From assembly GCA_965267345.1 (NCBI GenBank), contig OZ253947.1:330814-394813 (forward strand): a DNA stretch of 64,000 bases. The letters run 5' to 3'. The notes under the pieces are model-generated. The model searched no databases, was not told where the DNA came from, and saw nothing but the letters and a program-made list of their open reading frames with translations. Positions 426 through 58,629 of the stretch are shown in pieces; within the stretch, counting starts at the first letter, position 1, and each line of letters starts with the position of its first letter. Position numbers and translations under genes: made by a program. The DNA is from Minisyncoccota bacterium. GTDB taxonomy: Bacteria > Patescibacteriota > Minisyncoccia > Phycocordibacterales > UBA2100.

Positions 426-1253
426 ATGAGCGTACTCATCACCAAAATGAACGGCGAGCAGGAACCCTTCGTCGCGGAAAAACTCGACCGCTCGCTGAAG
501 CGTGCGGGGGCGCACCAAGAGGTGCGCGACGAGATCGTGCAGCATATCGAGGAGGAGCTCCGCGAGGGAATGACCACACAGGAAATTTACGAACACGCAT
601 TTGATTTGTTGCGCAGCCACGAGCAAAAACCTGTCGCTGCACGCTACTCGGTTAAACGCGCCGTACTGGACCTCGGGCCATCGGGATTTCCGTTCGAGCG
701 CTTTGTCGGACGTATTTTCGACGCCATTGGCTACACTGACGTGCAAACAGGTGTTGCTGCGCAGGGAAGTTGCGCACCCCACGAAGTAGACCTTATTGCC
801 AAGCACAACGGCAAGACAGTTGCTGCGGAAGTGAAATTCCATAATAGCCTCGGGATTAAAACCGATCTGAAAGTCGCGCTCTACGTCAAGGCACGCTTCG
901 ACGACCTTGCACATAAGAACATGGACATCGGTGAGCAATGGCTTATCACCAATACGCGCTTTACCCGCAACGCAGCGCGCTATGGACAGTGTGCGGGACT
1001 CCAGCTTCTCGGCTGGGACTACCCACGCGACCGCGGGCTGGAAGTACTCATTGACGAAGCAGGCGTCCACCCGCTGACCGCACTCACCACACTCTCAGAT
1101 CATGAAAAGCGCCGCTTGCTTGATGACAGCGTCGTCCTGTGCCGCGAAATTGATACTGAGCGTGATGCACTACGTCGCTACGACATTCACGACAACAAGC
1201 ATGAAGCCGTCCGCGACGAAGTGCAACGTTTGTGCAAAGTAGCACGAGCCTAG
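426..1253 (+). CDS. ATP-cone domain fused to Mrr/PD-(D/E)xK restriction-endonuclease-like domain
   Basis: The N-terminal 90 aa resemble the NrdR-type ATP-cone (ITKMNGEQEPFVAEKLDRSLKRAG...VAARYSVKRAV). The middle part has a Mrr_cat-like nuclease core (EVDLIAKHNGKTVAAEVKFH). A TATAAT -10 lies upstream at about 404. The antisense 217-aa ORF 417-1070 is rejected. Confidence 0.6.
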   Translation: MSVLITKMNGEQEPFVAEKLDRSLKRAGAHQEVRDEIVQHIEEELREGMTTQEIYEHAFDLLRSHEQKPVAARYSVKRAVLDLGPSGFPFERFVGRIFDAIGYTDVQTGVAAQGSCAPHEVDLIAKHNGKTVAAEVKFHNSLGIKTDLKVALYVKARFDDLAHKNMDIGEQWLITNTRFTRNAARYGQCAGLQLLGWDYPRDRGLEVLIDEAGVHPLTALTTLSDHEKRRLLDDSVVLCREIDTERDALRRYDIHDNKHEAVRDEVQRLCKVARA

Positions 1254-1821: not shown

Positions 1822-2328
1822 ATGCTACTTGAGCTCGAGCCACACGTTACGACACTATTCATCCAACTGAGCGTTGCCACGATGCTCGGGCTCGTTATCG
1901 GCGCTGAGCGTTCTGTCGCAGGGAAAGTTGCCGGCATGCGCACCTTTGCGCTGGTGGCACTGGGTTCAACACTCTTTACCATCATCTCCATTGTGATCAC
2001 GACCCAATACCTAGGCAAGGTGAACTTCGACCCAATGCGCACCACCGCCGCGATCATCACGGGTGTCGGCTTCATCGGCGCCGGCCTCATTGTCTTTCGT
2101 CAAGACCTGCTGCGCGGCCTTACCACCGCTGCGGGGTTGTGGGTCTCTGCGGGCGTTGGTATCGCCGTTGGCTTTGGTTTGTATTCAATTGCTGTCTTCA
2201 CCACATTGATGACACTTTTCGTCTTCACTGCAGTGTGGTTTGTTGAAACGCACCTCAAACGTCGCTTTGGTCGTCGCGTGACACCACCGGCAGCAGAGCA
2301 CGACTTGTTAGTTGCTGACGACGGCTAG
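1822..2328 (+). CDS. mgtC: MgtC/SapB family membrane protein
   Basis: MgtC signature LGLVIGAERSVAGKVAGMRTFALVALGSTLF with multiple TM helices. Confidence 0.6.
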   Translation: MLLELEPHVTTLFIQLSVATMLGLVIGAERSVAGKVAGMRTFALVALGSTLFTIISIVITTQYLGKVNFDPMRTTAAIITGVGFIGAGLIVFRQDLLRGLTTAAGLWVSAGVGIAVGFGLYSIAVFTTLMTLFVFTAVWFVETHLKRRFGRRVTPPAAEHDLLVADDG

Positions 2329-2329
2329 T

Positions 2330-3163
2330 ATGTCGCAGTTCTACAAACCACACCGCAACCCGAACTGGAATTACGGCGGCGCCAACTTTCGCCTGTCACG
2401 ATCGAAAATTGACCTGTTTATCGACTGTCCGCGCTGTTTCTACGTCGACAACAAACTCGGTGTCGCCCGACCACCCGGATACCCGTTCAACCTCAACAGT
2501 GCCGTTGACGAGCTGCTCAAGCGTGAGTTCGATGTGCACCGCGCCGACGAGACGCCGCACCCGCTCATGGAAACGTACGGCATTGATGCTATACCGTTCC
2601 ACCACGTGCAGCTCGACGCGTGGCGCGACTCACTACGCCACGGCGTGCAGTATCTACATGAACCTACGCAGCTCCTCGTACGCGGCGGCATCGACGACGT
2701 CTGGAAAGATCGCACAGGCAAGCTCATTGTCGTTGACTACAAAGCAACGAGCAAAAAAGGGGAGGTGAATCTCGATGCACCGTGGCAAGACGGCTACAAG
2801 CGACAGGTGGAAGTCTACCAGTGGCTCTTCCGCAAAAACGAATTCGAGGTGAGCGATACCGCCTACTTTGTCTACGCAAATGCAGACGCCGACCGCGAAG
2901 CATTCGATGGCAAACTTGAATTTGATGTAAAAATTATTCCCTACGTCGGTGACGACGCGTGGGTTGAACCAACACTTTTCGAAATTAAAAAATGTCTTGA
3001 TGATCCACGGGTACCAAAGGCGTCACCCGAGTGCGACTATTGCCGGTACCGCGAAGCGGCTGGTACCGTACTGCTCAAGAACAAAGAAGAGCGACAAGCG
3101 GCAAAAGCACCGGCAGCACACAAAGACACCCCGCCACAGAAGAAAACCGATTCACTGTTTTAA
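2330..3163 (+). CDS. PD-(D/E)xK nuclease with 4-Cys (Fe-S) cluster, Cas4/RecB-nuclease-like
   Basis: N-terminal CPRCFY and C-terminal CDYCRY cysteine pairs flank an IVVDYKAT..QVEVYQ core typical of the Cas4/AddB nuclease domain. Start taken at MSQFYKP (2330), one nt after the mgtC stop. Confidence 0.55.
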   Translation: MSQFYKPHRNPNWNYGGANFRLSRSKIDLFIDCPRCFYVDNKLGVARPPGYPFNLNSAVDELLKREFDVHRADETPHPLMETYGIDAIPFHHVQLDAWRDSLRHGVQYLHEPTQLLVRGGIDDVWKDRTGKLIVVDYKATSKKGEVNLDAPWQDGYKRQVEVYQWLFRKNEFEVSDTAYFVYANADADREAFDGKLEFDVKIIPYVGDDAWVEPTLFEIKKCLDDPRVPKASPECDYCRYREAAGTVLLKNKEERQAAKAPAAHKDTPPQKKTDSLF

Positions 3164-3167
3164 GTGT

Positions 3168-3425
3168 ATGCGTACTTTTACTGAAAACGTGCTTGATGTT
3201 GTCCGCGCCATTCCTAAAGGCCAGACGCGTACCTACGCGCAGGTTGCCGCCGCAGCGGGTTCGCCCAATGCAGCGCGCGCTGTCGGCTCGATTATGAAGA
3301 AAAACTACTTGCCTGATGTACCGTGCCATCGGGTGATCACCAGCTCTGGTGCCGTGGGCAACTACAATCGTGGTGGTGCTGTGCAGAAGCGTGCATTGCT
3401 TCGCAAAGAAGGTGCGGTACGCTAG
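3168..3425 (+). CDS. ogt: methylated-DNA--protein-cysteine methyltransferase, C-terminal domain only
   Basis: Active-site motif PCHRV plus the HTH region (TYAQVAAAAGSPNAARAVG). The longer ORF 2949-3425 is an upstream in-frame extension overlapping the nuclease gene. Confidence 0.6.
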   Translation: MRTFTENVLDVVRAIPKGQTRTYAQVAAAAGSPNAARAVGSIMKKNYLPDVPCHRVITSSGAVGNYNRGGAVQKRALLRKEGAVR

Positions 3426-5422: not shown

Positions 5423-7324
5423 ATGGACACGCAAACCATACGAAAAAAGTATCTCGATTTTTTTGCTGCACGCGAGCATGCCATCGTGCCGTCGGCGTCA
5501 CTCGTACCGGCCAATGACCCTACAACACTCTTCACCGGCAGCGGCATGCAGCCGATGCTGCCGTACTTATTGGGTGAGTCGCACCCGAAAGGCACCCGCA
5601 TCGCCGACTCGCAAAAGTGCTTTCGTGCCGAAGATATTGATGATATCGGCGACAATCGCCACACGACCTTTTTTGAAATGCTGGGGAACTGGTCGCTCGG
5701 TGACTACTTTAAAGACGAGCAGATCGAATGGCTCTTTACCTTCTTAACCAACGAGGTCGGTATCGACCCGAGCAAGCTCTGTGTCTCGGTGTTTATCGGC
5801 GATGAGCGCAACGGTATTCCGCGCGACGAGTACACACCGCAACTCTGGCAGAAACTGTTTGCCGACGCCGGTATTGATGCACCTATTGTGGAAATGGGCT
5901 CACAGGCCGACGGCAGTGCGCGCGGCATGCAGGGCGGCCGCATTTTCTACTACGATGCAAAGGAAAATTGGTGGAGTCGGGCAGGGGTGCCGGAGAACAT
6001 GCCGGCAGGCGAACCGGGTGGACCTGACTCGGAAGTCTTCTTTGATTTTGGCATTCCGCATAACCCCGACTTTGGCGAACACTGCCATCCCGCCTGCGAT
6101 TGCGGCCGCTTTATGGAAATTGCCAACTCGGTGTTTATGGAGTACGTCAAGAATGCTGACGGTTCATTCGGGAAGCTCGCACAGAAAAATGTGGACTTCG
6201 GCGGCGGGCTTGAACGCATTGCGGCCGCGGCAAATAACAACGCTGATGTCTTCTCAGTTGACTCACTCGCCCGCATTATTGCGCACCTCGAAGCGGCAAG
6301 CGGCAAAGTCTACAGCGATCCGGCGTACACGGTGAGCTTTCGTGTTATTGCTGACCACCTCCGCGGCGCCACCTTCATGATGGCCGACGGCGTGCAACCC
6401 GGTAACACTGAACAGGCCTACTTCGTACGACGCCTCATTCGACGCAGCGTGCAGTATGCTGACACGCTCGGCATCAGTGAGGGCACCCTCCCTGAGGCTG
6501 TGGCGATTGTCGCCGAAGCTTACCGCGAACACTACCCTGAACTCACCGAGCAGCAAGAAGCAATTACAACACTCATTGCCGCCGAAGAAGCCAAGTTTCG
6601 TCGTACGCTCGAGAAGGGTATGCGCGAATTTGAAAAGTATGCCGCACGTGGTTCGCTCTCCGGTCACGACGCATTTGTACTCTTCACGAGCTACGGATTT
6701 CCCGTCGAGCTCACCCAAGAACTTGCCCAGCGACAGGGGCTGACTGTCGACACTGATGCCTTTCGTGCCGAAATGGAAGAACACCGTGCACAGAGTCGCG
6801 CCGGTGCCGAACAGCGCTTCAAGGGCGGGCTCGCTGATCACTCGGAAAAAACCGTGCAGTACCACACCACGCACCATATTTTACTGCGCGCACTGCAGGA
6901 CGTACTCGGCCCGCACGTCAAACAGCGGGGGAGTAACATCACCAGCGAGCGACTCCGTTTTGATTTTGTCCATGGTGAAAAACTGACTGACGAGCAAAAA
7001 GCAGAGGTGGAGCGACTTGTGAATGAGCGCATCGCCGCTGAATTGCCGGTGCTCAAAACCGTGATGCCAAAAACCGAAGCAGAACAGCTCGGTGCCGAAC
7101 AGGAATTTGGCTTGAAGTACGGCGATATGGTCAATGTCTACTCCGTCGGTCCAAAAACCGCAACACCTGAAGACCCGCAGTTTGCTGACGCCGTCTCACT
7201 GGAGTTTTGTGGCGGGCCGCACGTTGAGAACACGCGCGACATTCACGGCACATTCACTATTGTGAAAGAACAGTCGAGCGCCGCCGGTATTCGTCGCATC
7301 CGCGCGGTGCTTAAAGAAGACTAG
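5423..7324 (+). CDS. alaS: alanine--tRNA ligase (short form, about 634 aa)
   Basis: Class II AlaRS catalytic core plus the editing-domain motif HHILLRALQDVLGPHVKQRGSNITSERLRFDF. The C-terminal C-Ala domain is missing. Confidence 0.85.
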   Translation: MDTQTIRKKYLDFFAAREHAIVPSASLVPANDPTTLFTGSGMQPMLPYLLGESHPKGTRIADSQKCFRAEDIDDIGDNRHTTFFEMLGNWSLGDYFKDEQIEWLFTFLTNEVGIDPSKLCVSVFIGDERNGIPRDEYTPQLWQKLFADAGIDAPIVEMGSQADGSARGMQGGRIFYYDAKENWWSRAGVPENMPAGEPGGPDSEVFFDFGIPHNPDFGEHCHPACDCGRFMEIANSVFMEYVKNADGSFGKLAQKNVDFGGGLERIAAAANNNADVFSVDSLARIIAHLEAASGKVYSDPAYTVSFRVIADHLRGATFMMADGVQPGNTEQAYFVRRLIRRSVQYADTLGISEGTLPEAVAIVAEAYREHYPELTEQQEAITTLIAAEEAKFRRTLEKGMREFEKYAARGSLSGHDAFVLFTSYGFPVELTQELAQRQGLTVDTDAFRAEMEEHRAQSRAGAEQRFKGGLADHSEKTVQYHTTHHILLRALQDVLGPHVKQRGSNITSERLRFDFVHGEKLTDEQKAEVERLVNERIAAELPVLKTVMPKTEAEQLGAEQEFGLKYGDMVNVYSVGPKTATPEDPQFADAVSLEFCGGPHVENTRDIHGTFTIVKEQSSAAGIRRIRAVLKED

Positions 7325-7376
7325 TCCACACACACGCCCGCTCGGCGACGCACGATCGTTGCTATACTAAACGAGT

Positions 7377-8531
7377 ATGGGCGCTCTTTCTTGGCTTAGT
7401 TCGCGCGGGGAACCGGAGTACACGGTCGTATTTGATATCGCCAGCGGCAGCATTGGCACAGCACTCGTGCACCAGCAAAACCAGCGCGCGCGGATTCTCT
7501 TTGCCAAACGCCTCCCACTTCAATTTGTACAGGAGCATACTGCGGACGAATTTGCCGCGCTGATTGCCCGCACCATTGCCACGGCCGCGGAACTCGTGCG
7601 TCGTGAAATCGCCACGCATGACCTCAAACCTGCCGACTACACTGTGCAGGCACTACTGCACACGCCATGGGCCTTTTCACACTCAGTGGCAATCGACACC
7701 CATTTGGAAAACGAAACACCGATCACCCGTGAGCTACTGCGCAGCTTTGTTGCCGACACGCTCAAGCCCGACGTGCCGTCGGGACACACAATTTTCAATC
7801 AGCACATCACTCGTATTGAGCTCAACGGGTACAGTACGACTGATCCATACCGCAAAAAAGCATCACACCTAGCTGCGAGCGTGTTGGTCAGCACCACACC
7901 GACGGCACTCCACACCCGCGTTACCACGGCACTTGAAGAAGCCTTTCCTGCGCACACGCCCTCGCTCGATGCGTACCTCTACGCGGCACTGCAGTTGCCC
8001 GAGCTGCGCGACGCGCCGGACGACATTACGTTTATTGATATTGGTGGCGAGTATATGTCCGTGGCGATTATTCGTGACGCTGCCGTTATTGCCAGTGCGC
8101 AGAGCTCGTTTGGCACAACACACCTCATTCGCGCTGTTGCCGATGAGAATCCCGATGCGCATGCATCTGCACTGTCGCTGGTGACGATGTACCTCGCAAA
8201 TACCTGCACGCCGTCGCAGTGTCGCCAAGTTGAGCAGGCACTCACCAGCGTCGATACGCAGTGGAGTGAGGCATTTGGTACAACCGCCGCAACACTCAAC
8301 AAGAGCAATCGACTGCCGACGCACACCTACGTGAGTGTCGATCAACGATTTGCGCCGTGGTTTACCCACGCACTCGGCAAAATTGATTTTGCCCAATTTA
8401 CCGTAACGGCGCGGCCGCTTGAACCGGAACTCATTGATATGGCCCGCGCCACGCACGCAGTCCAGCTTGCCGACGGTGTGCCACGCGACGCAGCATTGAT
8501 ACTTGCGGCGCATTTTATTGTGGATAAATAG
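7377..8531 (+). CDS. actin-fold (ASKHA) ATPase, FtsA/PilM-like
   Basis: Phosphate-1-like VVFDIASGSIGTALV and phosphate-2-like FIDIGGEYMSVAII motifs. A TATACT -10 lies upstream at about 7352. Confidence 0.5.
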   Translation: MGALSWLSSRGEPEYTVVFDIASGSIGTALVHQQNQRARILFAKRLPLQFVQEHTADEFAALIARTIATAAELVRREIATHDLKPADYTVQALLHTPWAFSHSVAIDTHLENETPITRELLRSFVADTLKPDVPSGHTIFNQHITRIELNGYSTTDPYRKKASHLAASVLVSTTPTALHTRVTTALEEAFPAHTPSLDAYLYAALQLPELRDAPDDITFIDIGGEYMSVAIIRDAAVIASAQSSFGTTHLIRAVADENPDAHASALSLVTMYLANTCTPSQCRQVEQALTSVDTQWSEAFGTTAATLNKSNRLPTHTYVSVDQRFAPWFTHALGKIDFAQFTVTARPLEPELIDMARATHAVQLADGVPRDAALILAAHFIVDK

Positions 8532-8580
8532 GCCGTGGGTATCTGTCCATAGGGCATATTCCTCTGGTATACTTGTAGCT

Positions 8581-9975
8581 ATGGCACGACCATCATTTGA
8601 CGACATTACACCGCCAGCTCGCGGAAATGATACCGAGACTCCGTCCACTGCACCGCACGCACAGGACGACACACCCACTGCGGAAGAATCGAGTGCGACA
8701 TCTGAGCCTGCATCGATTCGTAACGTTGCGGCGCCGGAGACAAAAGCACGTGTCGAACGACGCGCACGACGAGCTGAGCGTCGCACGCTCGGCGGCAGCG
8801 ACGGCCCAACTGGCCGCTCACACAAAGGAATGACACGCATGGCCATGTGGGGCGGTGCAATCGTGGTGCTGCTCATTGCACTCACGGGAGTTGGGTTTCT
8901 CTTCATTGGCAAAACAACCCTGACCGTTGAGCCACTATCTGAGCGCATCACGCTCGGCGAAAATGTCGTCCACACTGCCTACACTGAGCCGGAAATCGGC
9001 GAATTGGGCTACACCGTGGTATCAGCAACACAGGAAGCGTCGGAAACGATCACCGCAACCGGTAGTGAGTATGTTGAGGAGCGCGCATCAGGGCGCATCG
9101 CTGTGTACAATAACTACAGCTCGGCAAGTCAGCGCCTCATCAAAAACACGCGCTTTGAAGCACCTGACGGCCGCATTTACCGTGTGACAAACTCATTCGT
9201 CGTACCCGGAATGCCCGACGAGGATACCGCAGGGCGCATTGAGGTCACGGTGCACGCTGATGTTCCCGGCTCTGATCAGAATCTCACCGCACTGGGTACA
9301 CGCCTGACCATTCCCGGCCTTGAAGGCGACCCGCGCTACAATGCATTCCACGCTGAGTTGATCACGCCAATTACAGGCGGCTTTGAGGGTGAACGTCCTG
9401 TCGTTGACGAAGCAACCCGTGAGGCAACCCGCACGGCATTGCAGGACCAGTTGCGCCGGCAAGCAGCGGATGCAGCACACGCGGCAGCCGGTGATCTGTA
9501 CGTATTCGACACCGCACTCCAAGTGCAGTTTGAATCACTTCCCATGACCACTGATACCGAGGGCAACGCAACCGTACGTGAACGCGCGCTCATTTCAGCA
9601 GTCGGCTTTACCATGCACGAACTCGCACGTACGCTCGCGCAGAGCGCACTGGCAACGCCGGCTGACGGCACCATCCGCATCGCAAATCCTAACGAGCTTA
9701 CCTTCCGCTTTGTGGGCGACGATGTATCAGTTGCCAATGATGCACTCATTCAGTTCACCCTCAGCGGCACCAGCGTGCTCGTGTGGGATATTGATGTTGA
9801 CGCACTCAAGCAAGACCTCGTCGGTAAGCACAGCACTGTCTTAAATTCGGTCATGAGCGGCTATCCGGGTATTGAGAGCGCCCAAGCAACCATTCGGCCG
9901 TTTTGGAAGAGTGAGTTCCCGAGTGACACTGATAATATTTCGGTCGAAATTACTGATCCCGTACAGAGCCAGTAG
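8581..9975 (+). CDS. hypothetical membrane-anchored protein (charged N-tail, one TM, large extracytoplasmic domain)
   Basis: Start at MARPSFDD. TM helix AMWGGAIVVLLIALTGVGFLFIG. No family recognised. Possibly a partner of the upstream ATPase. Confidence 0.45.
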   Translation: MARPSFDDITPPARGNDTETPSTAPHAQDDTPTAEESSATSEPASIRNVAAPETKARVERRARRAERRTLGGSDGPTGRSHKGMTRMAMWGGAIVVLLIALTGVGFLFIGKTTLTVEPLSERITLGENVVHTAYTEPEIGELGYTVVSATQEASETITATGSEYVEERASGRIAVYNNYSSASQRLIKNTRFEAPDGRIYRVTNSFVVPGMPDEDTAGRIEVTVHADVPGSDQNLTALGTRLTIPGLEGDPRYNAFHAELITPITGGFEGERPVVDEATREATRTALQDQLRRQAADAAHAAAGDLYVFDTALQVQFESLPMTTDTEGNATVRERALISAVGFTMHELARTLAQSALATPADGTIRIANPNELTFRFVGDDVSVANDALIQFTLSGTSVLVWDIDVDALKQDLVGKHSTVLNSVMSGYPGIESAQATIRPFWKSEFPSDTDNISVEITDPVQSQ

Positions 9976-34390: not shown

Positions 34391-35097
34391 ACATATATTC
34401 TAATACGTCCGCTCTATAATGCAACCTCTCACTTCCCTGTGGTTCTTGTGCGACGTGGTGTGTGGATGTTCTTTTGCGATGCACATGTTGTTTCTTGTAC
34501 GACGCTCGCCCTACCGTGGCTGTGTTGTGTTGAATGCTTCGCAAAAGAATGGATACAAGGTCGTGGTGTAAACCTTTTCGGAAGGTCCCCTTCCCTCTAG
34601 GTATACGACACGTTCTTTGAAAGCTTGGTGGAAACAAAAAGAGCCACACAGTGTGTGACTCTTCAGTTGTGTAATTCACTCAGTGGTACATAGTACCAAC
34701 ATCGGCCGGGATAACACCCGCTACGATTCTCGTGAGGACAACGGTTCTGCTCGAATACCATCAGGTCAGAGACGTACTAGTGTAAAAGAAGACGTACGTA
34801 CTTCCCCGCACTACAATGACCCTATGGTTTACAGATCGTCCCCGTGTTTCACTTTGCCGTTTACGCGAGACCAATAGCTACCGCGGCCACTATAAAAATG
34901 CGCCAGTCCGGTAGGTACTACTATGCACCACTCAATGAACTACTTATTCAATTACGTAGAGCTTGCGCACTCACACAACTGAATGCCTAAAGTATAACAT
35001 ATTCCCTTCCACCCAGCTTTCAGTGATGAAAGCAAACCACAAGACACTCACCTACGACAGTGATACAATTACCACGAATCTTTATGGTGATCATGAT

Positions 35098-35499
35098 ATG
35101 AAATGTAAGCTTGAGTACGCCCTGGTGGCAGAGAATGCAATTATCGACTCCGATTCAAATAAACTCACTGTCGTAGGCCTTTTCAGTAAAATACGAATAC
35201 CGACTGATGGTGGGTCTGTAAGAGTTAATTTTGTTGTTGCAGGAAAAATATCATTGGAAGACATCGCCGGCGAAGATCCTCGGGAACTCACGGTGAAGAT
35301 CGTCAAACCGAACGGAAAGGTTCTCGCTCAAGAAAGTATGAGAGGGCCGCTTGATACCGACGTCACGTTTAGAGCATTTTTCACGCTGATTGAGTTTAAG
35401 GAGGTAGGTTCCTACCATGTGAAGGTTGAGTTTGGTGGCGAAGAGCTCGAGATTAGCAATACTATTGGTTCTTTCAAGGTTGTTGAACGCGAAGCGTGA
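35098..35499 (+). CDS. hypothetical beta-rich protein (island ORFan)
   Basis: 133 aa. A GGTGA ribosome-binding site sits 7 nt upstream of ATG 35098. Low-GC codon usage. A 4-nt gap separates it from the next gene. Confidence 0.45.
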   Translation: MKCKLEYALVAENAIIDSDSNKLTVVGLFSKIRIPTDGGSVRVNFVVAGKISLEDIAGEDPRELTVKIVKPNGKVLAQESMRGPLDTDVTFRAFFTLIEFKEVGSYHVKVEFGGEELEISNTIGSFKVVEREA

Positions 35500-35503
35500 G
35501 CCT

Positions 35504-35884
35504 ATGGAACGAATACAGAATCCGTGGAGCACTTCTCAAGATGACGGAACGGGACATAATCGGCCGAGGATAATTACTTTGGGCAAAAGCCAGTCAGATG
35601 CCATTGACGAACTACGTGACCTTTACAGCAAAACAAGTAAAGACCTAGAGAGAACTCAGGAAGATGTATCGGAGCTGAGAGGACTAAAAACTATAGTAGA
35701 TAAGTACAGCAACCTTCTTATTCTTGGGTTCGCCATTTTGCTTGTAATGGTTGTAAGTATTCTAATGATCACTTTCCAATCCTTTATGGAAACGTATCGC
35801 TACAAAGAAGCGAAGTACAATGAGTACGTAAAGGCTGTTGAGTCACTGGATTCAAAAATAGAAGCCTTACAGACTGAAAAATGA
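35504..35884 (+). CDS. hypothetical protein with coiled-coil segments and a C-terminal TM helix (island ORFan)
   Basis: 126 aa (MERIQNPWSTSQDDG...LLILGFAILLVMVVSILMITF..). Co-directional with, and 4 nt after, 35098-35499. Confidence 0.45.
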   Translation: MERIQNPWSTSQDDGTGHNRPRIITLGKSQSDAIDELRDLYSKTSKDLERTQEDVSELRGLKTIVDKYSNLLILGFAILLVMVVSILMITFQSFMETYRYKEAKYNEYVKAVESLDSKIEALQTEK

Positions 35885-35887
35885 AAA

Positions 35888-35907
35888 ACACCACCCTACT
35901 CTCTTGG
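35888..35907. repeat. about 20-nt direct repeat ACACCACCCTACTCTCTTGG, copy 1 (copy 2 at 36392-36412, ACCACCGCCCTACTCTCTTGC)
   Basis: Two near-identical copies bracket the minus-strand gene 35915-36388 almost exactly. Confidence 0.55.
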
Positions 35908-35914
35908 GGTGTCT

Positions 35915-36388
35915 CTAGTGTGCCTTTCTAAGGAGTGTACTTGGTTTGTACCCAACGACCGTGAACTTCACAGCAACATTCGGCGCACCACCGGATGTGT
36001 AATACGCCAAAGGAGTTCCTACAAAACGAAATAGATCAGCTGATGGAATCTGTTCGTCCTTTAACTTCCCAAAGTCCACATGGACACTTGGAATAACAGG
36101 TAAGTATACGAAAGTATAGTCGTCTATGGGTTGCACTTGATAGTACCATTGTGTAGCTTCTTTACCTTTTACTGGGACCACGTTGACCACAATATCTTTA
36201 TCCCCTTCTGCACGAGTTCCATCTGGATTAAAAAGTGCTTTCTTAACGTTGAGTTCCTCAGCGTGTTTATCAAGGTATTCAAGCAGCGCCAGAACATCTG
36301 CAATAACCATGTCGTGAATAATAGCATCAAACTCCTCCTGAGTTATCTTCGAGGGGTCTATCTCTAAGGTGTGTTGCTCTTCGAGCAC
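35915..36388 (-). CDS. hypothetical protein (island ORFan)
   Basis: 157 aa, acidic N-terminus (MLEEQHTLEIDPSKITQEEFDAIIHDM..). Convergent with the upstream two-gene operon. Flanked by the 20-nt direct repeats. Confidence 0.5.
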   Translation of the reverse strand: MLEEQHTLEIDPSKITQEEFDAIIHDMVIADVLALLEYLDKHAEELNVKKALFNPDGTRAEGDKDIVVNVVPVKGKEATQWYYQVQPIDDYTFVYLPVIPSVHVDFGKLKDEQIPSADLFRFVGTPLAYYTSGGAPNVAVKFTVVGYKPSTLLRKAH

Positions 36389-36391
36389 ATG

Positions 36392-36412
36392 ACCACCGCC
36401 CTACTCTCTTGC
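36392..36412. repeat. direct-repeat copy 2 (ACCACCGCCCTACTCTCTTGC)
   Basis: See 35888-35907. Confidence 0.55.
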
Positions 36413-48188: not shown

Positions 48189-49565
48189 ATGGCAGAAAGT
48201 CGTATACCGCCACAGGATCTGGAAGCGGAGCGCGCACTCCTTGGTGCCATCATGCTCAAGAGTAACGCCATGTACGACGTTGCTGACATCATTACGCCTG
48301 AGTCGTTCTACGCGCGTAAGCACGGTGACATATTCGAAGTCATGCTCGCGCTCTTCAACAAAGGCGAGCCGATCGACCTCGTCACCCTCTCCGGCCGACT
48401 CGAATCGCAAAAACGCCTTGAACAGATCGGCGGACGGAGCTACTTAGCTGAGCTTGCCAACGCAGCGCCGGCAGCCACCAATGCGGTCCACTATGCAAAC
48501 GTCGTTAAAGCAAAGCACATCCACCGCGAGCTTATCGATGCGGCGAATCACATCGGTGAGCTCGGCTACCAAGAAGACTCGGAAATTGAAGCGCTGCTCG
48601 ACGAGGCACAGTCGACCGTCTTTCGGATCGCCAACACCTCGACCCTCCAGAAGTTCTCGTCTATCGGTGACGAGTTGAAAGATGCATGGAAGCGCCTCGA
48701 AGCACTGCAGGAAAACAAAGATGAGCTGCGCGGTATTCATACGGGATTCAAAGAGCTCGATAGCCTCCTCGCCGGTTTGCAGAAATCTGACCTCATTATT
48801 CTTGCGGCACGTCCGTCGTTTGGTAAAACCTCGCTCGCACTTGATATCGCGCGAAAAACCGCCATTGAGCACGGTAATGCGGTCGGTCTCTTTTCTCTTG
48901 AAATGAGTGCGCAGCAGCTCACTGACCGCATGCTTGCCGCTGAAGCCGGCGTCGATTCGTGGCGCCTGCGTACTGGTAAACTCTCTTCCGACAACGAGTA
49001 CGACCAGATTCGCAACGCTATGGATCACCTCTCGACCGCGCCAATTTATATTGATGACAAAGCTGAACGAACCGTACTACAGATGCGTTCGATTGCCCGA
49101 CGCCTGAAGGCAGAGAAAGGATTGTCGCTCGTTATTGTCGACTACCTGCAACTCATTATGCCCGGCTCAACACGCAACAGCGACTCAATGGTGCAGCAGG
49201 TCACCGAAATCTCCCGCTCACTCAAAGCGATGGCCCGCGAGCTCGATGTGCCCGTTATTGCCCTATCACAGCTCTCCCGTGCAGTGGAACAGCGGCGCGA
49301 TCGCCCGCGCTTGTCGGACCTTCGTGATTCAGGTTCGATTGAACAGGACGCCGACGTAGTGATGTTTATTCATCGCGAAGACAAGATGCGCGAAGATTCC
49401 GACCGACCGAACATTGCCGACATCCTTATCGAAAAACACCGTAATGGTCCCGTTGGTAAAGTCGAATTGTACTTTGATGACAAAAAGGCCACTTTCGTTT
49501 CCGTCGAACGCAGTGACTTTGGCGATTTTGCGGCGACCACGGCTGACGCTGACGACGAATTCTAG
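48189..49565 (+). CDS. dnaB: replicative DNA helicase DnaB
   Basis: N-terminal DnaB domain plus RecA-like core (Walker A ARPSFGKTS, DYLQLI). Confidence 0.9.
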   Translation: MAESRIPPQDLEAERALLGAIMLKSNAMYDVADIITPESFYARKHGDIFEVMLALFNKGEPIDLVTLSGRLESQKRLEQIGGRSYLAELANAAPAATNAVHYANVVKAKHIHRELIDAANHIGELGYQEDSEIEALLDEAQSTVFRIANTSTLQKFSSIGDELKDAWKRLEALQENKDELRGIHTGFKELDSLLAGLQKSDLIILAARPSFGKTSLALDIARKTAIEHGNAVGLFSLEMSAQQLTDRMLAAEAGVDSWRLRTGKLSSDNEYDQIRNAMDHLSTAPIYIDDKAERTVLQMRSIARRLKAEKGLSLVIVDYLQLIMPGSTRNSDSMVQQVTEISRSLKAMARELDVPVIALSQLSRAVEQRRDRPRLSDLRDSGSIEQDADVVMFIHREDKMREDSDRPNIADILIEKHRNGPVGKVELYFDDKKATFVSVERSDFGDFAATTADADDEF

Positions 49566-51792: not shown

Positions 51793-54459
51793 TCACGACT
51801 GCAGGCGGCGGCGATTAACGAGGAATTTTACCGTTTCGACGAGGGTGAGATTTACTATACCAAAAATCACCAGTAGGCCGACTTCGCCCCAGGTCATCGG
51901 CTCAAGCGACAAGAGTGTTACCAGCGGCGCAAAAGTCAACGCAGCAAGGAGAAGCGCAAAGCTGGCCACAAGCGCGGCGAGGAGGTAGCGGTTTGAAAAG
52001 AGTTGAATGCGCCATATGGGTTCGTGTAGATTCTTGAATGAAAAGGCGAAGAACATCGAGCCGATTGACAGGGCGACAAACATCACCGTGCGTATCTCTT
52101 CGATGGGGGTGTGCGCCCATGAGAGCAGTAAAAAGAGGCCGAACAGTAGTAATCCCGTAATACCGCTGACGATGAGGATCAACCAGCGTACGCTGCTGGT
52201 CATAATGCGATTAATGCCGCTGCGTTGCGGCTGTGTTGTCATGGCGTCTTTCTCACGTGGCTCAAATGCAAATGGAAAACTCATAAAACCTTCTTGTACA
52301 AGGTTCGCCCAGAGAATCTGTGTGGGAAGCAACGGCACAGGCGAGCCAATTGCCAGCGCACCACTAATGACGACAATTTCGCTAAAACCCGTCGAGAGTA
52401 AGAATGCAACAATTTTACGCAGGTTTGCAATGATGCGACGTCCCTCGGCAATAGCGGTAGTAATAACGGAAAAGCTATTCTCAATGAGAATCACGTCGGC
52501 TGCTGCCTTGGCGACATCAGTACCACTGCCAACAGCAACGCCAATGTCTGCAGCGGCAAGTGCCGGCGCGTCGTTCACCCCATCACCCGTCATCGCCACT
52601 ACTTCCCCGCTGTTACGCAACACATGCGCCATGCGCAGCTTTTGTTCCGGCAGTACACGTGCAACAATGCTGTGTTTCTGGAGTGCTTTGAGAAGCTGCT
52701 CGTCATCATACTGCGAAATATCCGCGCCAGTGAGAATTGGTGCGTCCTGCTTAGTGACAATACCAACTTCGTACGCAATCGCCCGCGCCGTTTCGGGATA
52801 GTCGCCGGTTGCCATAATCACACGTGCACCCGCCTGCTGTGTTACCGCAATGGATTCGGCAACATCGGGACGAACAGCGTCGGCAAATGCCAACAGCCCG
52901 ACAAAGACAAATTCCTGTGCCCCTTCCGCCTCCTTGAGCTTCTCAGGGACTGCCGCTTCAGTCGTGCGCATGTACGCAATAGCAGTAAAGCGCATGCCTT
53001 CAGCTGAGATATCCTTTTGTGTTTTGGCAATGCGCTCACGCATCTCGTCGGTGAGTTTGCGCTCACGTCCGTCATAAAAAAATTTCTGTGACCGTGCAAG
53101 AAGGTACTCGGGTGAGCCAGAAAAGTATAGTCGATTCCCTCGTTGGGGCGACTCATTAAGTGAGATCGCAAAACGACGACGCGTTTCAAACTGCACGAGC
53201 TGCAACCGCTCATTGCCGTTTGCAAAAAGCTCCTTTTGCGATAGGCCGGCTTCAAGGCCGGCTTCGATAATCGCCTTTTCGAGCGGTCGCCCCTGCACAA
53301 TAAGCGTGCCAGTTTCTTTCGGATCTTCCTCAATAAATGCATCTGATGCCAGCACGGCCATTTTAAGCAGTTCGCGGTTATCGCCTTCCGGTTCAGTCTG
53401 TTCATTCTCAATGCCTTGCGCCGTATAAAAATTGCTCAATATCATGCGCCCTTGGGTGAGCGTTCCGGTTTTGTCGGTAAGCACCACCGTCGTCGAGCCG
53501 AGTGTCTCGGCTGCGAGGAGACTCTTCACCAGACCGCCTTTGCGGAGAATGGCTTCCATTCCTAGCGCCAAGACCACGGTGACAGCTGCCGGTAGCCCTC
53601 CAGGCATTGCCGCAACGGCAACGGCAATCGCCAGCAGCAGCATTGCTGCCAATGACTCACCGCGAAGTATGCCAAAGACCACAATCACGACAATGGCAAT
53701 GAAAATGACACCGATGAGGAAATGAGCGAGTCGCCGAATACTCTTCTGCAGTGGCGTCAGGGCGTCGAGTTCCCGATTCGTTTTTTCGGCGATTTGCCCA
53801 AAGCGCGCCTCTTGTCCAACCGCAGTGACCACCGCCGTTCCTGTCCCTTCCGCAACGAGCGTTCCCATCCAGACCATGTTCGTCTGCTCCGATGCCGGCA
53901 GCGCGCGACCAAGCGCTTTCGCTTCTTTTTTCACCGGCAACCACTCACCGGTGAGTGCCGCTTCATTGTTACTGAGCTCGTCTGCGGTCAGTACCCGTGC
54001 GTCAGCCGGCACCACACCGCCGGTTGTTAGCACAATAATGTCGCCGACCACGACTTCATCAGTGGGAATCATCTGTCGCTTACCGTCACGAAGCACGGTT
54101 GCAAACTCTTCCTGCGACTGTGCGAGTACATCGAAAATGCGGGCCGCTTTTCCCTCCTGCAGCACACCAACGACAACGTTTATTACCAGCGCGATGGCAA
54201 TAACGACGGCATCAAGGTATTCGTGCAGGAAGAGCGTAGCAACACCTGCACCAATGAAGACAATCGAAAGCGGGCTTTTGAGTTGCCCGTAAATCGAGCG
54301 TAGAATGCGAAATCGCTCTTCTTTCGGCAATGCATTGCGGCCGTACTGTGTCCGCTTTTTTTCAACGCGCGCCGACGAGAGACCGCTACGGCCGTCCGTC
54401 CCCAGTACGGCAAGTGCTTTCTCGGCTGGGTAGCTATGCCACGGATGTGTGTCTGTCAT
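51793..54459 (-). CDS. P-type cation-transporting ATPase (P2-type, Ca2+/Mg2+-like)
   Basis: DKTGTLT phosphorylation site, TGDGVNDAPAL hinge motif, and about 10 TM helices. Confidence 0.85.
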   Translation of the reverse strand: MTDTHPWHSYPAEKALAVLGTDGRSGLSSARVEKKRTQYGRNALPKEERFRILRSIYGQLKSPLSIVFIGAGVATLFLHEYLDAVVIAIALVINVVVGVLQEGKAARIFDVLAQSQEEFATVLRDGKRQMIPTDEVVVGDIIVLTTGGVVPADARVLTADELSNNEAALTGEWLPVKKEAKALGRALPASEQTNMVWMGTLVAEGTGTAVVTAVGQEARFGQIAEKTNRELDALTPLQKSIRRLAHFLIGVIFIAIVVIVVFGILRGESLAAMLLLAIAVAVAAMPGGLPAAVTVVLALGMEAILRKGGLVKSLLAAETLGSTTVVLTDKTGTLTQGRMILSNFYTAQGIENEQTEPEGDNRELLKMAVLASDAFIEEDPKETGTLIVQGRPLEKAIIEAGLEAGLSQKELFANGNERLQLVQFETRRRFAISLNESPQRGNRLYFSGSPEYLLARSQKFFYDGRERKLTDEMRERIAKTQKDISAEGMRFTAIAYMRTTEAAVPEKLKEAEGAQEFVFVGLLAFADAVRPDVAESIAVTQQAGARVIMATGDYPETARAIAYEVGIVTKQDAPILTGADISQYDDEQLLKALQKHSIVARVLPEQKLRMAHVLRNSGEVVAMTGDGVNDAPALAAADIGVAVGSGTDVAKAAADVILIENSFSVITTAIAEGRRIIANLRKIVAFLLSTGFSEIVVISGALAIGSPVPLLPTQILWANLVQEGFMSFPFAFEPREKDAMTTQPQRSGINRIMTSSVRWLILIVSGITGLLLFGLFLLLSWAHTPIEEIRTVMFVALSIGSMFFAFSFKNLHEPIWRIQLFSNRYLLAALVASFALLLAALTFAPLVTLLSLEPMTWGEVGLLVIFGIVNLTLVETVKFLVNRRRLQS

Positions 54460-57711: not shown

Positions 57712-57768
57712 GTGAAATGTAAAAGACCGAAGACATGCTTCGGTCGTAACGTTTCAGGCGGGCGATGA

Positions 57769-57839
57769 GGGAATCGAACCCCCGACGTCGGTTTTGGAGA
57801 CCGAAGTTATACCACTTAACTAATCGCCCGTGAAAAAGA
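57769..57839 (-). tRNA. tRNA-Trp (anticodon CCA)
   Basis: Cloverleaf on the minus strand: GGGCGAT-TA-GTTA..TAAC-TCGGT-CTCCAAA-ACCGA-CGTC-GGGGGTTCGATTCCCTC-ATCGCCC-G. Downstream hairpin terminator at 57725-57745. Confidence 0.85.
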
Positions 57840-58543: not shown

Positions 58544-58629
58544 TGGTGCGCCGGGAGGGATTCGAACCCCCGTAGACCGAAGTCGCGAGGTTTACAGCCT
58601 CGTGCATTTGACCACTCTGCCACCGACGC
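58544..58629 (-). tRNA. tRNA-Tyr (anticodon GTA), long variable arm
   Basis: Minus-strand cloverleaf GCGTCGG…CTGTAAA…GACTTCGGTCTAC-GGGGGTTCGAATCCCTC-CCGGCGC-A-CCA with an encoded CCA. Palindromic hairpin at 58508-58538 downstream. Confidence 0.85.

Follow-up and report, generated by a model that had tools for sequence, protein, structure and literature searches.

The locus and its domain architecture

We analysed a stretch of 64,000 nucleotides (the window) from a Minisyncoccota bacterium (GTDB lineage Bacteria; Patescibacteriota; Minisyncoccia; Phycocordibacterales; UBA2100), corresponding to positions 330,814-394,813 of the forward strand of contig OZ253947.1 (assembly GCA_965267345.1). The gene of interest, hereafter the target, lies on the plus strand at 426-1253 of the window and is a complete open reading frame (ORF) of 275 amino acids, with an ATG start and its stop codon included. 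It encodes an ATP-cone/Mrr-like nuclease of the AF1548 family, made of an ATP-cone, an Mrr-type PD-(D/E)xK nuclease and a C-terminal helical domain. The ATP-cone (438-659, plus strand; residues 5-78 by Pfam, with a final helix that reaches about residue 82) holds the nucleotide-contact positions K7, E13, F15 and K19. The junction between cone and nuclease, AARYSVKRAVLDLGPSGFPFE, spans 636-698 of the same strand (residues 71-91) and is the most conserved stretch of the protein. The Mrr_cat core follows at 684-1007 (plus strand, residues 87-194), with E91 encoded at 696-698, D122 at 789-791, E135 at 828-830 and K137 at 834-836. Finally, the C-terminal helical domain AF1548-like_C, with a predicted SAM/HhH-like fold, occupies 1011-1241 of the plus strand (residues 196-272).

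The initial annotation had described an ATP-cone fused to an Mrr-like PD-(D/E)xK core, and this was confirmed by the Pfam models, both of which score above their gathering thresholds, as well as by the structural matches described below. The ATP-cone model PF03477 aligns to residues 5-78 with E = 2.3e-9 and 38.1 bits (gathering score 25.8). The Mrr_cat match (PF04471, residues 87-194, E = 1e-4) is marginal in the target, at 22.8 bits against a gathering score of 21, while close relatives score 26-35 bits. A lack of significant matches, which the initial annotation had named as a refuting outcome, was not observed. A description in two domains was right as far as the cone and the nuclease are concerned, but it missed the third domain and the existence of a catalogued family with a truncated structure. 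Residues 92-263 of the target match PDB entry 1Y88 (AF1548 of Archaeoglobus fulgidus) with E = 5.8e-29, a match that spans the nuclease core and the C-terminal domain. The Pfam family of the latter, PF22357 (AF1548-like_C), stays under the reporting level in the target and is above threshold in three relatives (P0039, P0116 and P0137); the C-terminal profile matches residues 122-197 of 1Y88 with E = 3e-23.

At the other end of the protein, the profile of the family N-terminus retrieves the cones of ribonucleotide reductases and of NrdR from the PDB. In NCBIfam, the target gave weak matches to cone-containing families alone (2-phosphoglycerate kinase, NrdR and NrdD), all far under their cut-offs. 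For example, the NrdR model TIGR00244 reached 15.4 bits against a cut-off of 124.65, with the cone part alone aligning (model positions 49-98). No Zn-ribbon was found in the target, the N-terminus of which is the ATP-cone itself, in place of the modified-DNA reader of Mrr-type enzymes. Searches with the family hidden Markov models revealed no second ATP-cone gene and no paralogue of the target in the window.

Breadth of the family and residue conservation

The family counts 4550 clusters at 90% identity (E ≤ 1e-5). A profile search of 1.84 billion representatives gave 1704 clusters at E ≤ 1e-3 and 570 clusters (50% identity) at E ≤ 1e-30; the best 150 of these 570 are 266-403 residues long, most of them 270-300, and cover nearly the whole profile. 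The nearest members are found in Kaiserbacteria and other Paceibacteria-type Patescibacteria. With AF1548 as the query, the three-domain architecture was also recovered in Archaeoglobus, Geoglobus, Ferroglobus, Hadesarchaea, Aenigmarchaeota and Nanoarchaeota. Beyond Patescibacteria, the family thereby extends to DPANN archaea, Archaeoglobi and scattered bacteria, with orthologues of identical architecture. The architecture is already catalogued, with three Pfam families, a PDB entry and the NCBI names 'ATP cone domain-containing protein' and 'restriction endonuclease', and the target is an ordinary orthologue of this known yet experimentally uncharacterised family. Searches of the accessible literature returned no experiments on family members, and no paper on an ATP-cone/Mrr or AF1548-type protein other than a note of 2007 from the Global Ocean Sampling (GOS) study (PMC1821046).

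Residue conservation was evaluated over 383 full-length members. The four catalytic residues E91, D122, E135 and K137 are 100% conserved, as are G84, G87, F90, R157 and P216, and conservation is 93-100% for K7, G10, F15, K19, T51 and Y74. Taking the cone contact residues one by one, K7 is conserved in 97% of the members, E13 in 83-97%, F15 in 94% and K19 in 97-98%. In the NrdR protein of S. coelicolor, mutation of V48, K50, E56 or K62 abolishes nucleotide binding, with E56 reading the adenine amino group and F58 lining the adenine pocket (PMC9110341). Profile alignment places V48, K50, E56, F58 and K62 of NrdR in register with I5, K7, E13, F15 and K19 of the target. With both the catalytic residues and the nucleotide-contact residues of the cone conserved, a nucleotide sensor coupled to a nuclease is a reasonable reading of the protein.

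In close relatives of the target, four cysteines (C116, C189, C239 and C270) vary little or not at all. A four-cysteine metal or Fe-S cluster was considered as a feature of the family and rejected, since C239 is conserved in 55% and C270 in 31% of the archaeal set. C116 (771-773) and C189 (990-992) are 95-97% conserved across bacteria and archaea, with C239 and C270 kept in some lineages. C116 and C189 might form a disulfide or a metal site, or might simply be buried together. In addition, insertions of about 15-130 residues were observed in five members (P0137, P0212, P0217, P0230 and P0236; total length 295-403 residues). These fall after the position equivalent to residue ~164 of the target, in the variable loop ahead of strand 4 of the nuclease core.

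Predicted structure and comparison with known systems

An AlphaFold model of the target, built with 27 relatives, has a mean predicted local distance difference test score (pLDDT) of 86.6 and a predicted template modelling (TM) score of 0.78. It consists of a beta-hairpin and four helices, then an alpha-beta-beta-beta-alpha-beta core, then a small helical domain. The cone comprises strands 4-6 and 12-14 and helices 17-27, 31-44, 51-65 and 68-82; the nuclease core comprises helix 90-100, strands 104-113, 118-127 and 130-137, helix 148-162 and strand 168-175. Residues 71-91, which link the last cone helix to the nuclease helix alpha-1 bearing the invariant E91, are the part of the model with the lowest confidence (pLDDT 65-69). 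Its high conservation and low model confidence would fit a flexible coupling element.

The top match of a Foldseek search against the PDB was 1Y88 (E = 5e-15, TM score 0.79 on the target). It was followed by other PD-(D/E)xK nucleases: NucS/EndoMS and MspJI, and also Can2, Card1 and Cdn1 through their nuclease domains. The N-terminal part retrieved the cones of NrdR and ribonucleotide reductases, with a root-mean-square deviation (rmsd) of 1.9 Å over 83 residues for NrdR and a range of 1.8-2.1 Å over 82-84 residues across NrdR cones. The C-terminal domain is modelled as helical (pLDDT 80) and resembles the N-terminal domains of Rad51/RadA weakly by profile (E = 0.39 and 1). By Foldseek, it superposes on Rad51/RadA N-terminal and SAM-like domains with rmsd 1.8-2.2 Å over 55-60 residues, at E > 1, and a precomputed PF14520 match exists for one homologue. 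The C-terminal domain is a probable nucleic-acid-binding or oligomerisation module, and DNA binding by it is plausible.

AF1548 belongs to the same family as the target, its nuclease core and C-terminal domain (PF22357) both aligning. No function was ever assigned to it. The GOS paper (PMC1821046) predicted for it a catalytic triad of D, E and K. The deposited chain starts just past the conserved GFxFE motif, without the ATP-cone and the invariant Glu of helix alpha-1 (about 90 N-terminal residues). An A. fulgidus protein that is 99% identical to AF1548 (P0271, 265 residues) has the ATP-cone, Mrr_cat and AF1548-like_C. Since P0271 carries the cone and the 1Y88 chain does not, the sole structure of the family shows two of its three domains, and any regulation by the sensor domain is not visible in it. 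The alignment suggests that the start of the AF1548 gene was probably called too far downstream originally.

The target shares the PD-(D/E)xK core, the D...ExK motif and the TNTxFT strand with Mrr-type (type IV) enzymes of PF04471. These enzymes have a winged-helix modified-DNA reader at the N-terminus, whereas the target has an ATP-cone there, an extra C-terminal helical domain and a housekeeping context. NrdR is a Zn-ribbon and ATP-cone repressor of ribonucleotide reductase genes. The target has the same cone fold and the Lys, Glu, Phe and Lys contact positions, but pairs them with a nuclease output domain whose active site is intact. By analogy, NrdR and the target are likely to follow the same logic, in which assembly and action on nucleic acid depend on the nucleotide state of the cone. 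Similarly, the type III CRISPR proteins Can2, Card1 and Cdn1 combine a sensor of a nucleotide ligand with a ligand-switched PD-(D/E)xK nuclease, as proposed here for the target. They do so with a CARF sensor, cyclic oligoadenylate and CRISPR-linked defence, in contrast to the ATP-cone and the putative ATP/dATP ligand of the target, and they are not members of the family. NucS/EndoMS, which serves repair as a housekeeping PD-(D/E)xK nuclease in archaea and bacteria lacking MutS/MutL, ranks second among the fold matches (E = 1.8e-4, rmsd 2.8 Å over 111 columns). It shares the core fold alone with the target, the N-terminal domain being different, and the two are unrelated at the sequence level.

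Genomic context in Patescibacteria

For 75 Patescibacteria loci taken from GTDB species genomes, ORFs were called and clustered, and the clusters named with Pfam. This led to a fixed order in which (LeuRS or DnaB), a helix-turn-helix protein, a membrane protein, MltG, MnmA and (a small secreted protein) precede the target, and (DUF7282), MgtC, PDDEXK_1, an Ogt-like protein and the uracil-DNA glycosylase UDG follow it, with AlaRS further on. All genes of the array are co-directional. MnmA is found near the target in 64 of the 75 loci, PDDEXK_1 in 61, MgtC in 44 and DUF7282 in 17.

In the window, the target is followed on the plus strand by a DUF7282 membrane-anchored protein (1277-1819; at the same position in the 17 loci just mentioned), an MgtC-family membrane protein (1822-2328), a PDDEXK_1/Cas4-like nuclease with a CxxC...CxxC motif (2312-3163) and an Ogt-like protein of 85 residues (3168-3425). 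The PDDEXK_1/Cas4-like gene scores 46 bits for PDDEXK_1 and 34.8 bits for the NCBIfam cas4 model, below the cut-off of 65. The Cas4-like and Ogt-like genes had been noted as lying beside the target; both are present downstream, but not strictly adjacent, as the DUF7282 and MgtC genes stand in between. The Ogt-like protein has the C-terminal DNA_binding_1 domain only, with the PCHRV active-site motif and without the N-terminal domain, and a product of about 86 residues is found in 28 related loci.

Across this array, the mean pairwise identity is 59% for the target, 55.5% for MgtC, 49.5% for MnmA and 49% for MltG. The pairwise identities of the target correlate with those of its neighbours, with Spearman coefficients of 0.64-0.87 (0.70 for MnmA and 0.87 for MltG). 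An identity above that of the neighbours, together with this correlation, indicates vertical inheritance under strong constraint, and on these comparisons the target belongs to the core genes that Paceibacteria-type Patescibacteria inherit vertically. It exceeds even MnmA in conservation, in one of the largest uncultivated bacterial lineages.

Context in other lineages

Outside the candidate phyla radiation (CPR), we compared 79 metagenome loci ranked on an archaeal query. No universal neighbour was found across them, but genes of nucleotide metabolism and genes for stress and metal handling came up repeatedly beside divergent members sharing 30-50% identity. A class II ribonucleotide reductase with an ATP-cone of its own lies directly downstream of the family member in three loci (L105, L106 and L125) and nearby in two (L102 and L107). 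A consistent ribonucleotide-reductase operon, the other refuting outcome named in the initial annotation, was looked for and rejected, with 0/75 CPR loci and 5/79 other loci showing this association.

An archaeal-type gene of the thymidine/AMP-phosphorylase family was found in L133 (overlapping), L120, L137, L160 and L143, with archaeal-type family members beside it in L133, L120 and L143. A beta-CASP nuclease gene was found in L137, L160, L166, L164, L143 and L122. In four cases these genes form a co-directional cassette, in which the family member is followed by a beta-CASP metallo-beta-lactamase hydrolase, a thymidine-phosphorylase family gene and a ribose-phosphate diphosphokinase. The carriers are plasmids of Pontibacter actiniarum (NZ_CP021236; 1972-6597 of locus L167) and Criblamydia sequanensis (NZ_LK031773; 6995-11602 of L168), as well as loci L137 (5989-11004) and L160 (5989-10952). 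Both plasmid homologues are the first gene of the cassette and are named 'ATP cone domain-containing protein'. The thymidine-phosphorylase family model NF003338 scores 679 versus 434 bits and the ribose-phosphate diphosphokinase model NF005537 scores 401 versus 322. Genes for a universal stress protein (Usp) and a 2-hydroxyacid dehydrogenase are often found upstream of the cassette, and the Criblamydia cassette is flanked by phosphoketolase, glycogen phosphorylase and acetate kinase genes. From its gene content, the cassette looks like a catabolic or salvage module leading from nucleic acid to ribose phosphate. We know of no published description of this four-gene cassette. None of the beta-CASP, phosphorylase, reductase, Usp or ZIP genes is found in the 64-kb window, where the sole related gene is a distant P-type ATPase at 51,793-54,459.

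In unrelated lineages, several members of the family adjoin genes for divalent-metal transport and CsoR-like repressors, and the stop codon of one gene often overlaps the start codon of the next, an arrangement for which we have no good explanation. For example, genes for CorA and DUF389 overlap the family member in Ferroglobus placidus (5958-8721 of locus L081). A ZIP transporter gene was observed in L122, L147 and L148, and a P-type ATPase gene in L112, L164 and the Criblamydia plasmid. Further stress and metal neighbours include Usp, the CsoR-like repressors and, in the CPR array, MgtC (the 1822-2328 gene of the window). The low-oxygen lxa locus of Burkholderia (Usp, class II reductase, cation ATPase and acetate kinase) was considered as a parallel and set aside; no ATP-cone nuclease is listed in it, which leaves an analogy only.

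Proposed function and alternatives

To our knowledge, ATP-cones have been studied almost solely as the switch of ribonucleotide reductases and of the repressor NrdR. The AF1548 family joins this switch to an intact nuclease. In ribonucleotide reductases and NrdR, nucleotide occupancy sets activity or assembly through the cones, as is well established (PMC9110341). By analogy, we propose that the target is an adenine-nucleotide-gated nuclease serving nucleic-acid turnover, salvage or repair, a proposal that we put at an even chance, the coupling, the substrate and the role all being points that we infer. The protein would be a cytoplasmic three-domain enzyme of the AF1548 family, and its cone would bind ATP and/or dATP as the cones of NrdR and ribonucleotide reductases do. 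Occupancy of the cone would alter the oligomeric state or the position of the junction at residues 71-91, which includes E91, and the altered assembly or junction would switch nucleic-acid cleavage on or off. The enzyme might in this way match cleavage to the adenylate and deoxynucleoside triphosphate state of the cell, for turnover, salvage or repair and not for phage restriction. If ATP/dATP does gate the nuclease, there would be a direct tie between nucleotide or energy status and nucleic-acid cleavage, and a testable entry into the way ultra-small symbionts manage their nucleotide supply. CPR bacteria and DPANN archaea have been reported to depend on salvaged nucleotides.

A broader form of this proposal is possible but doubtful. 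Next to ribonucleotide reductases and NrdR, the AF1548 family could form a third functional class of ATP-cone proteins that has so far gone unrecognised. Its members would be adenylate/dATP-gated endonucleases that start nucleic-acid breakdown for salvage or energy, encoded first in a cassette with beta-CASP, AMP-phosphorylase-type and phosphoribosyl pyrophosphate (PRPP)-synthase-type genes in some bacteria and by a core gene in CPR and DPANN.

Several observations weigh against a gated nuclease with a role in turnover, salvage or repair. No biochemistry is available in the searchable literature for any member. Most CPR and DPANN members have M, A, S or N in place of the Arg that follows the cone Lys (R51 in NrdR), and it was not possible to map the last cone helix, residue by residue, onto known nucleotide contacts. 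E. coli NrdR likewise lacks this Arg and has a Ser there. The beta-CASP partner carries an RNA-specificity domain, and the substrate of the nuclease could be either DNA or RNA. The family is capable of horizontal transfer, as its two plasmid copies demonstrate. Synteny conserved within a single lineage may stem from inertia and not from function. Moreover, the neighbours in CPR are repair and membrane genes and not salvage genes, so that the link to salvage is carried over from other lineages. With PDDEXK_1, Ogt and UDG genes downstream in the CPR array, DNA-damage regulation, also raised in the initial annotation, is a possible alternative.

A different use of the same cone would be that of a regulator resembling NrdR, in which the protein is mainly DNA-binding, the nuclease fold and the C-terminal domain read DNA, and ATP/dATP in the cone sets binding to promoters of nucleotide metabolism. 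The NrdR cones are the closest structural matches of the cone, a class II reductase gene lies directly downstream or nearby in the five loci listed above, and one source labels a homologue 'transcriptional regulator NrdR family protein'. We nevertheless consider such a regulator unlikely, as the Zn-ribbon is missing, TIGR00244 stays far below its cut-off, the complete conservation of four catalytic residues is unexpected for a fold that only binds, and the reductase adjacency is confined to those five loci, none of them from CPR.

The initial annotation suggested nucleotide-pool-sensing defence as one possibility. In a type IV restriction-like or abortive-infection-like system, the cone would sense a phage-caused disturbance of the nucleotide pool and release the Mrr-like nuclease. 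Type IV restriction enzymes cut with an Mrr_cat domain, fusions of a sensor with a PD-(D/E)xK domain are typical of defence effectors, and Can2, Card1 and Cdn1 are among the fold matches. In addition, the Criblamydia homologue has a weak match to the PADLOC model CARF_PDDEXK (E = 1.4e-4), the two plasmid homologues are near an insertion sequence element or an integrase, and an AT-rich orphan segment lies directly upstream of the target. The target itself gave no match in PADLOC-DB 2.0 at E ≤ 0.1, nor did the cassette partners. No viral relatives were found in IMG/VR (2.9 million viral contigs, two scans) and no phage relatives in INPHARED (50,697 phage records, tblastn). No methyltransferase or recognisable defence gene was seen among the recurrent neighbours, and the gene order is fixed among the housekeeping genes MnmA, MltG, MgtC and AlaRS in the 75 loci. 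Defence genes are patchy and fast-evolving, whereas the target co-diverges with its neighbours and is conserved beyond MnmA, and both plasmid copies head a metabolic cassette. The lack of defence and viral matches, together with the vertical and highly conserved pattern, makes a role in restriction or abortive infection decidedly unlikely. The database names 'restriction endonuclease' and 'Holliday junction resolvase' given to family members are likewise unsupported by context.

Finally, the protein could assist or regulate the transport of divalent metals or a stress/dormancy programme, sensing Mg-ATP and working together with the membrane transporters of the adjacent genes, but we regard this as highly improbable: transporter genes do adjoin the family, often overlapping, in unrelated lineages (CorA/DUF389, MgtC, ZIP and P-type ATPase), with CsoR-like repressors and Usp genes nearby, but neither the conserved nuclease site nor the C-terminal domain, which is of a nucleic-acid-binding type, has an obvious role in transport, and the adjacency concerns a minority of loci, its enrichment over chance being roughly estimated and transporter genes being common in any genome.

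Upstream region and other features of the window

The segment upstream of the target (1-400) has a GC content of about 0.37 (0.36-0.39) against a window mean of 0.536, and the stretch 1-425 is the lowest in GC of the window. It had been noted as AT-rich and foreign-looking. The low GC is real, but the segment is an orphan stretch at a synteny break, and no link to the target gene is visible as far as can be seen. It carries an orphan ORF (99-368, 89 residues) that matches no Pfam or PHROG model; a search of 5.8 billion proteins gave no homologue, and the ORF resembles none of the fetched loci. The window lacks MnmA, MltG and the two genes that precede them in the array, and the stretch 1-425 holds the place that MnmA occupies in 64 of the 75 related loci. 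This stretch is a synteny break and possibly the edge of an insertion.

A -10-like hexamer, TATAAT, was mapped to 412-417 of the plus strand, ending 8 nucleotides ahead of the ATG. Hexamers matching TATAAT in at least 5 of 6 positions and ending 5-10 nucleotides before the start codon were found in 23 of 44 related loci, compared to 1.7 ± 1.3 in shuffled sequences. No Shine-Dalgarno sequence was found ahead of the target, and a generic two-hexamer scan found no -35/-10 pair. The hexamer and the missing Shine-Dalgarno sequence suggest that the target has its own promoter and a leaderless or near-leaderless mRNA in Paceibacteria.

Rfam identified two tRNA genes on the minus strand, tRNA-Trp (CCA) at 57,757-57,829 and tRNA-Tyr (GTA) at 58,544-58,629, and no other family at gathering score in the window. 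A second and milder low-GC stretch (0.42-0.44) is present at 34,800-36,400, among short ORFs. DnaB is encoded at 48,189-49,565, about 48 kb from the target, while in several relatives it lies five genes upstream of it; this displacement is further evidence of rearrangement in the genome from which the window was taken.

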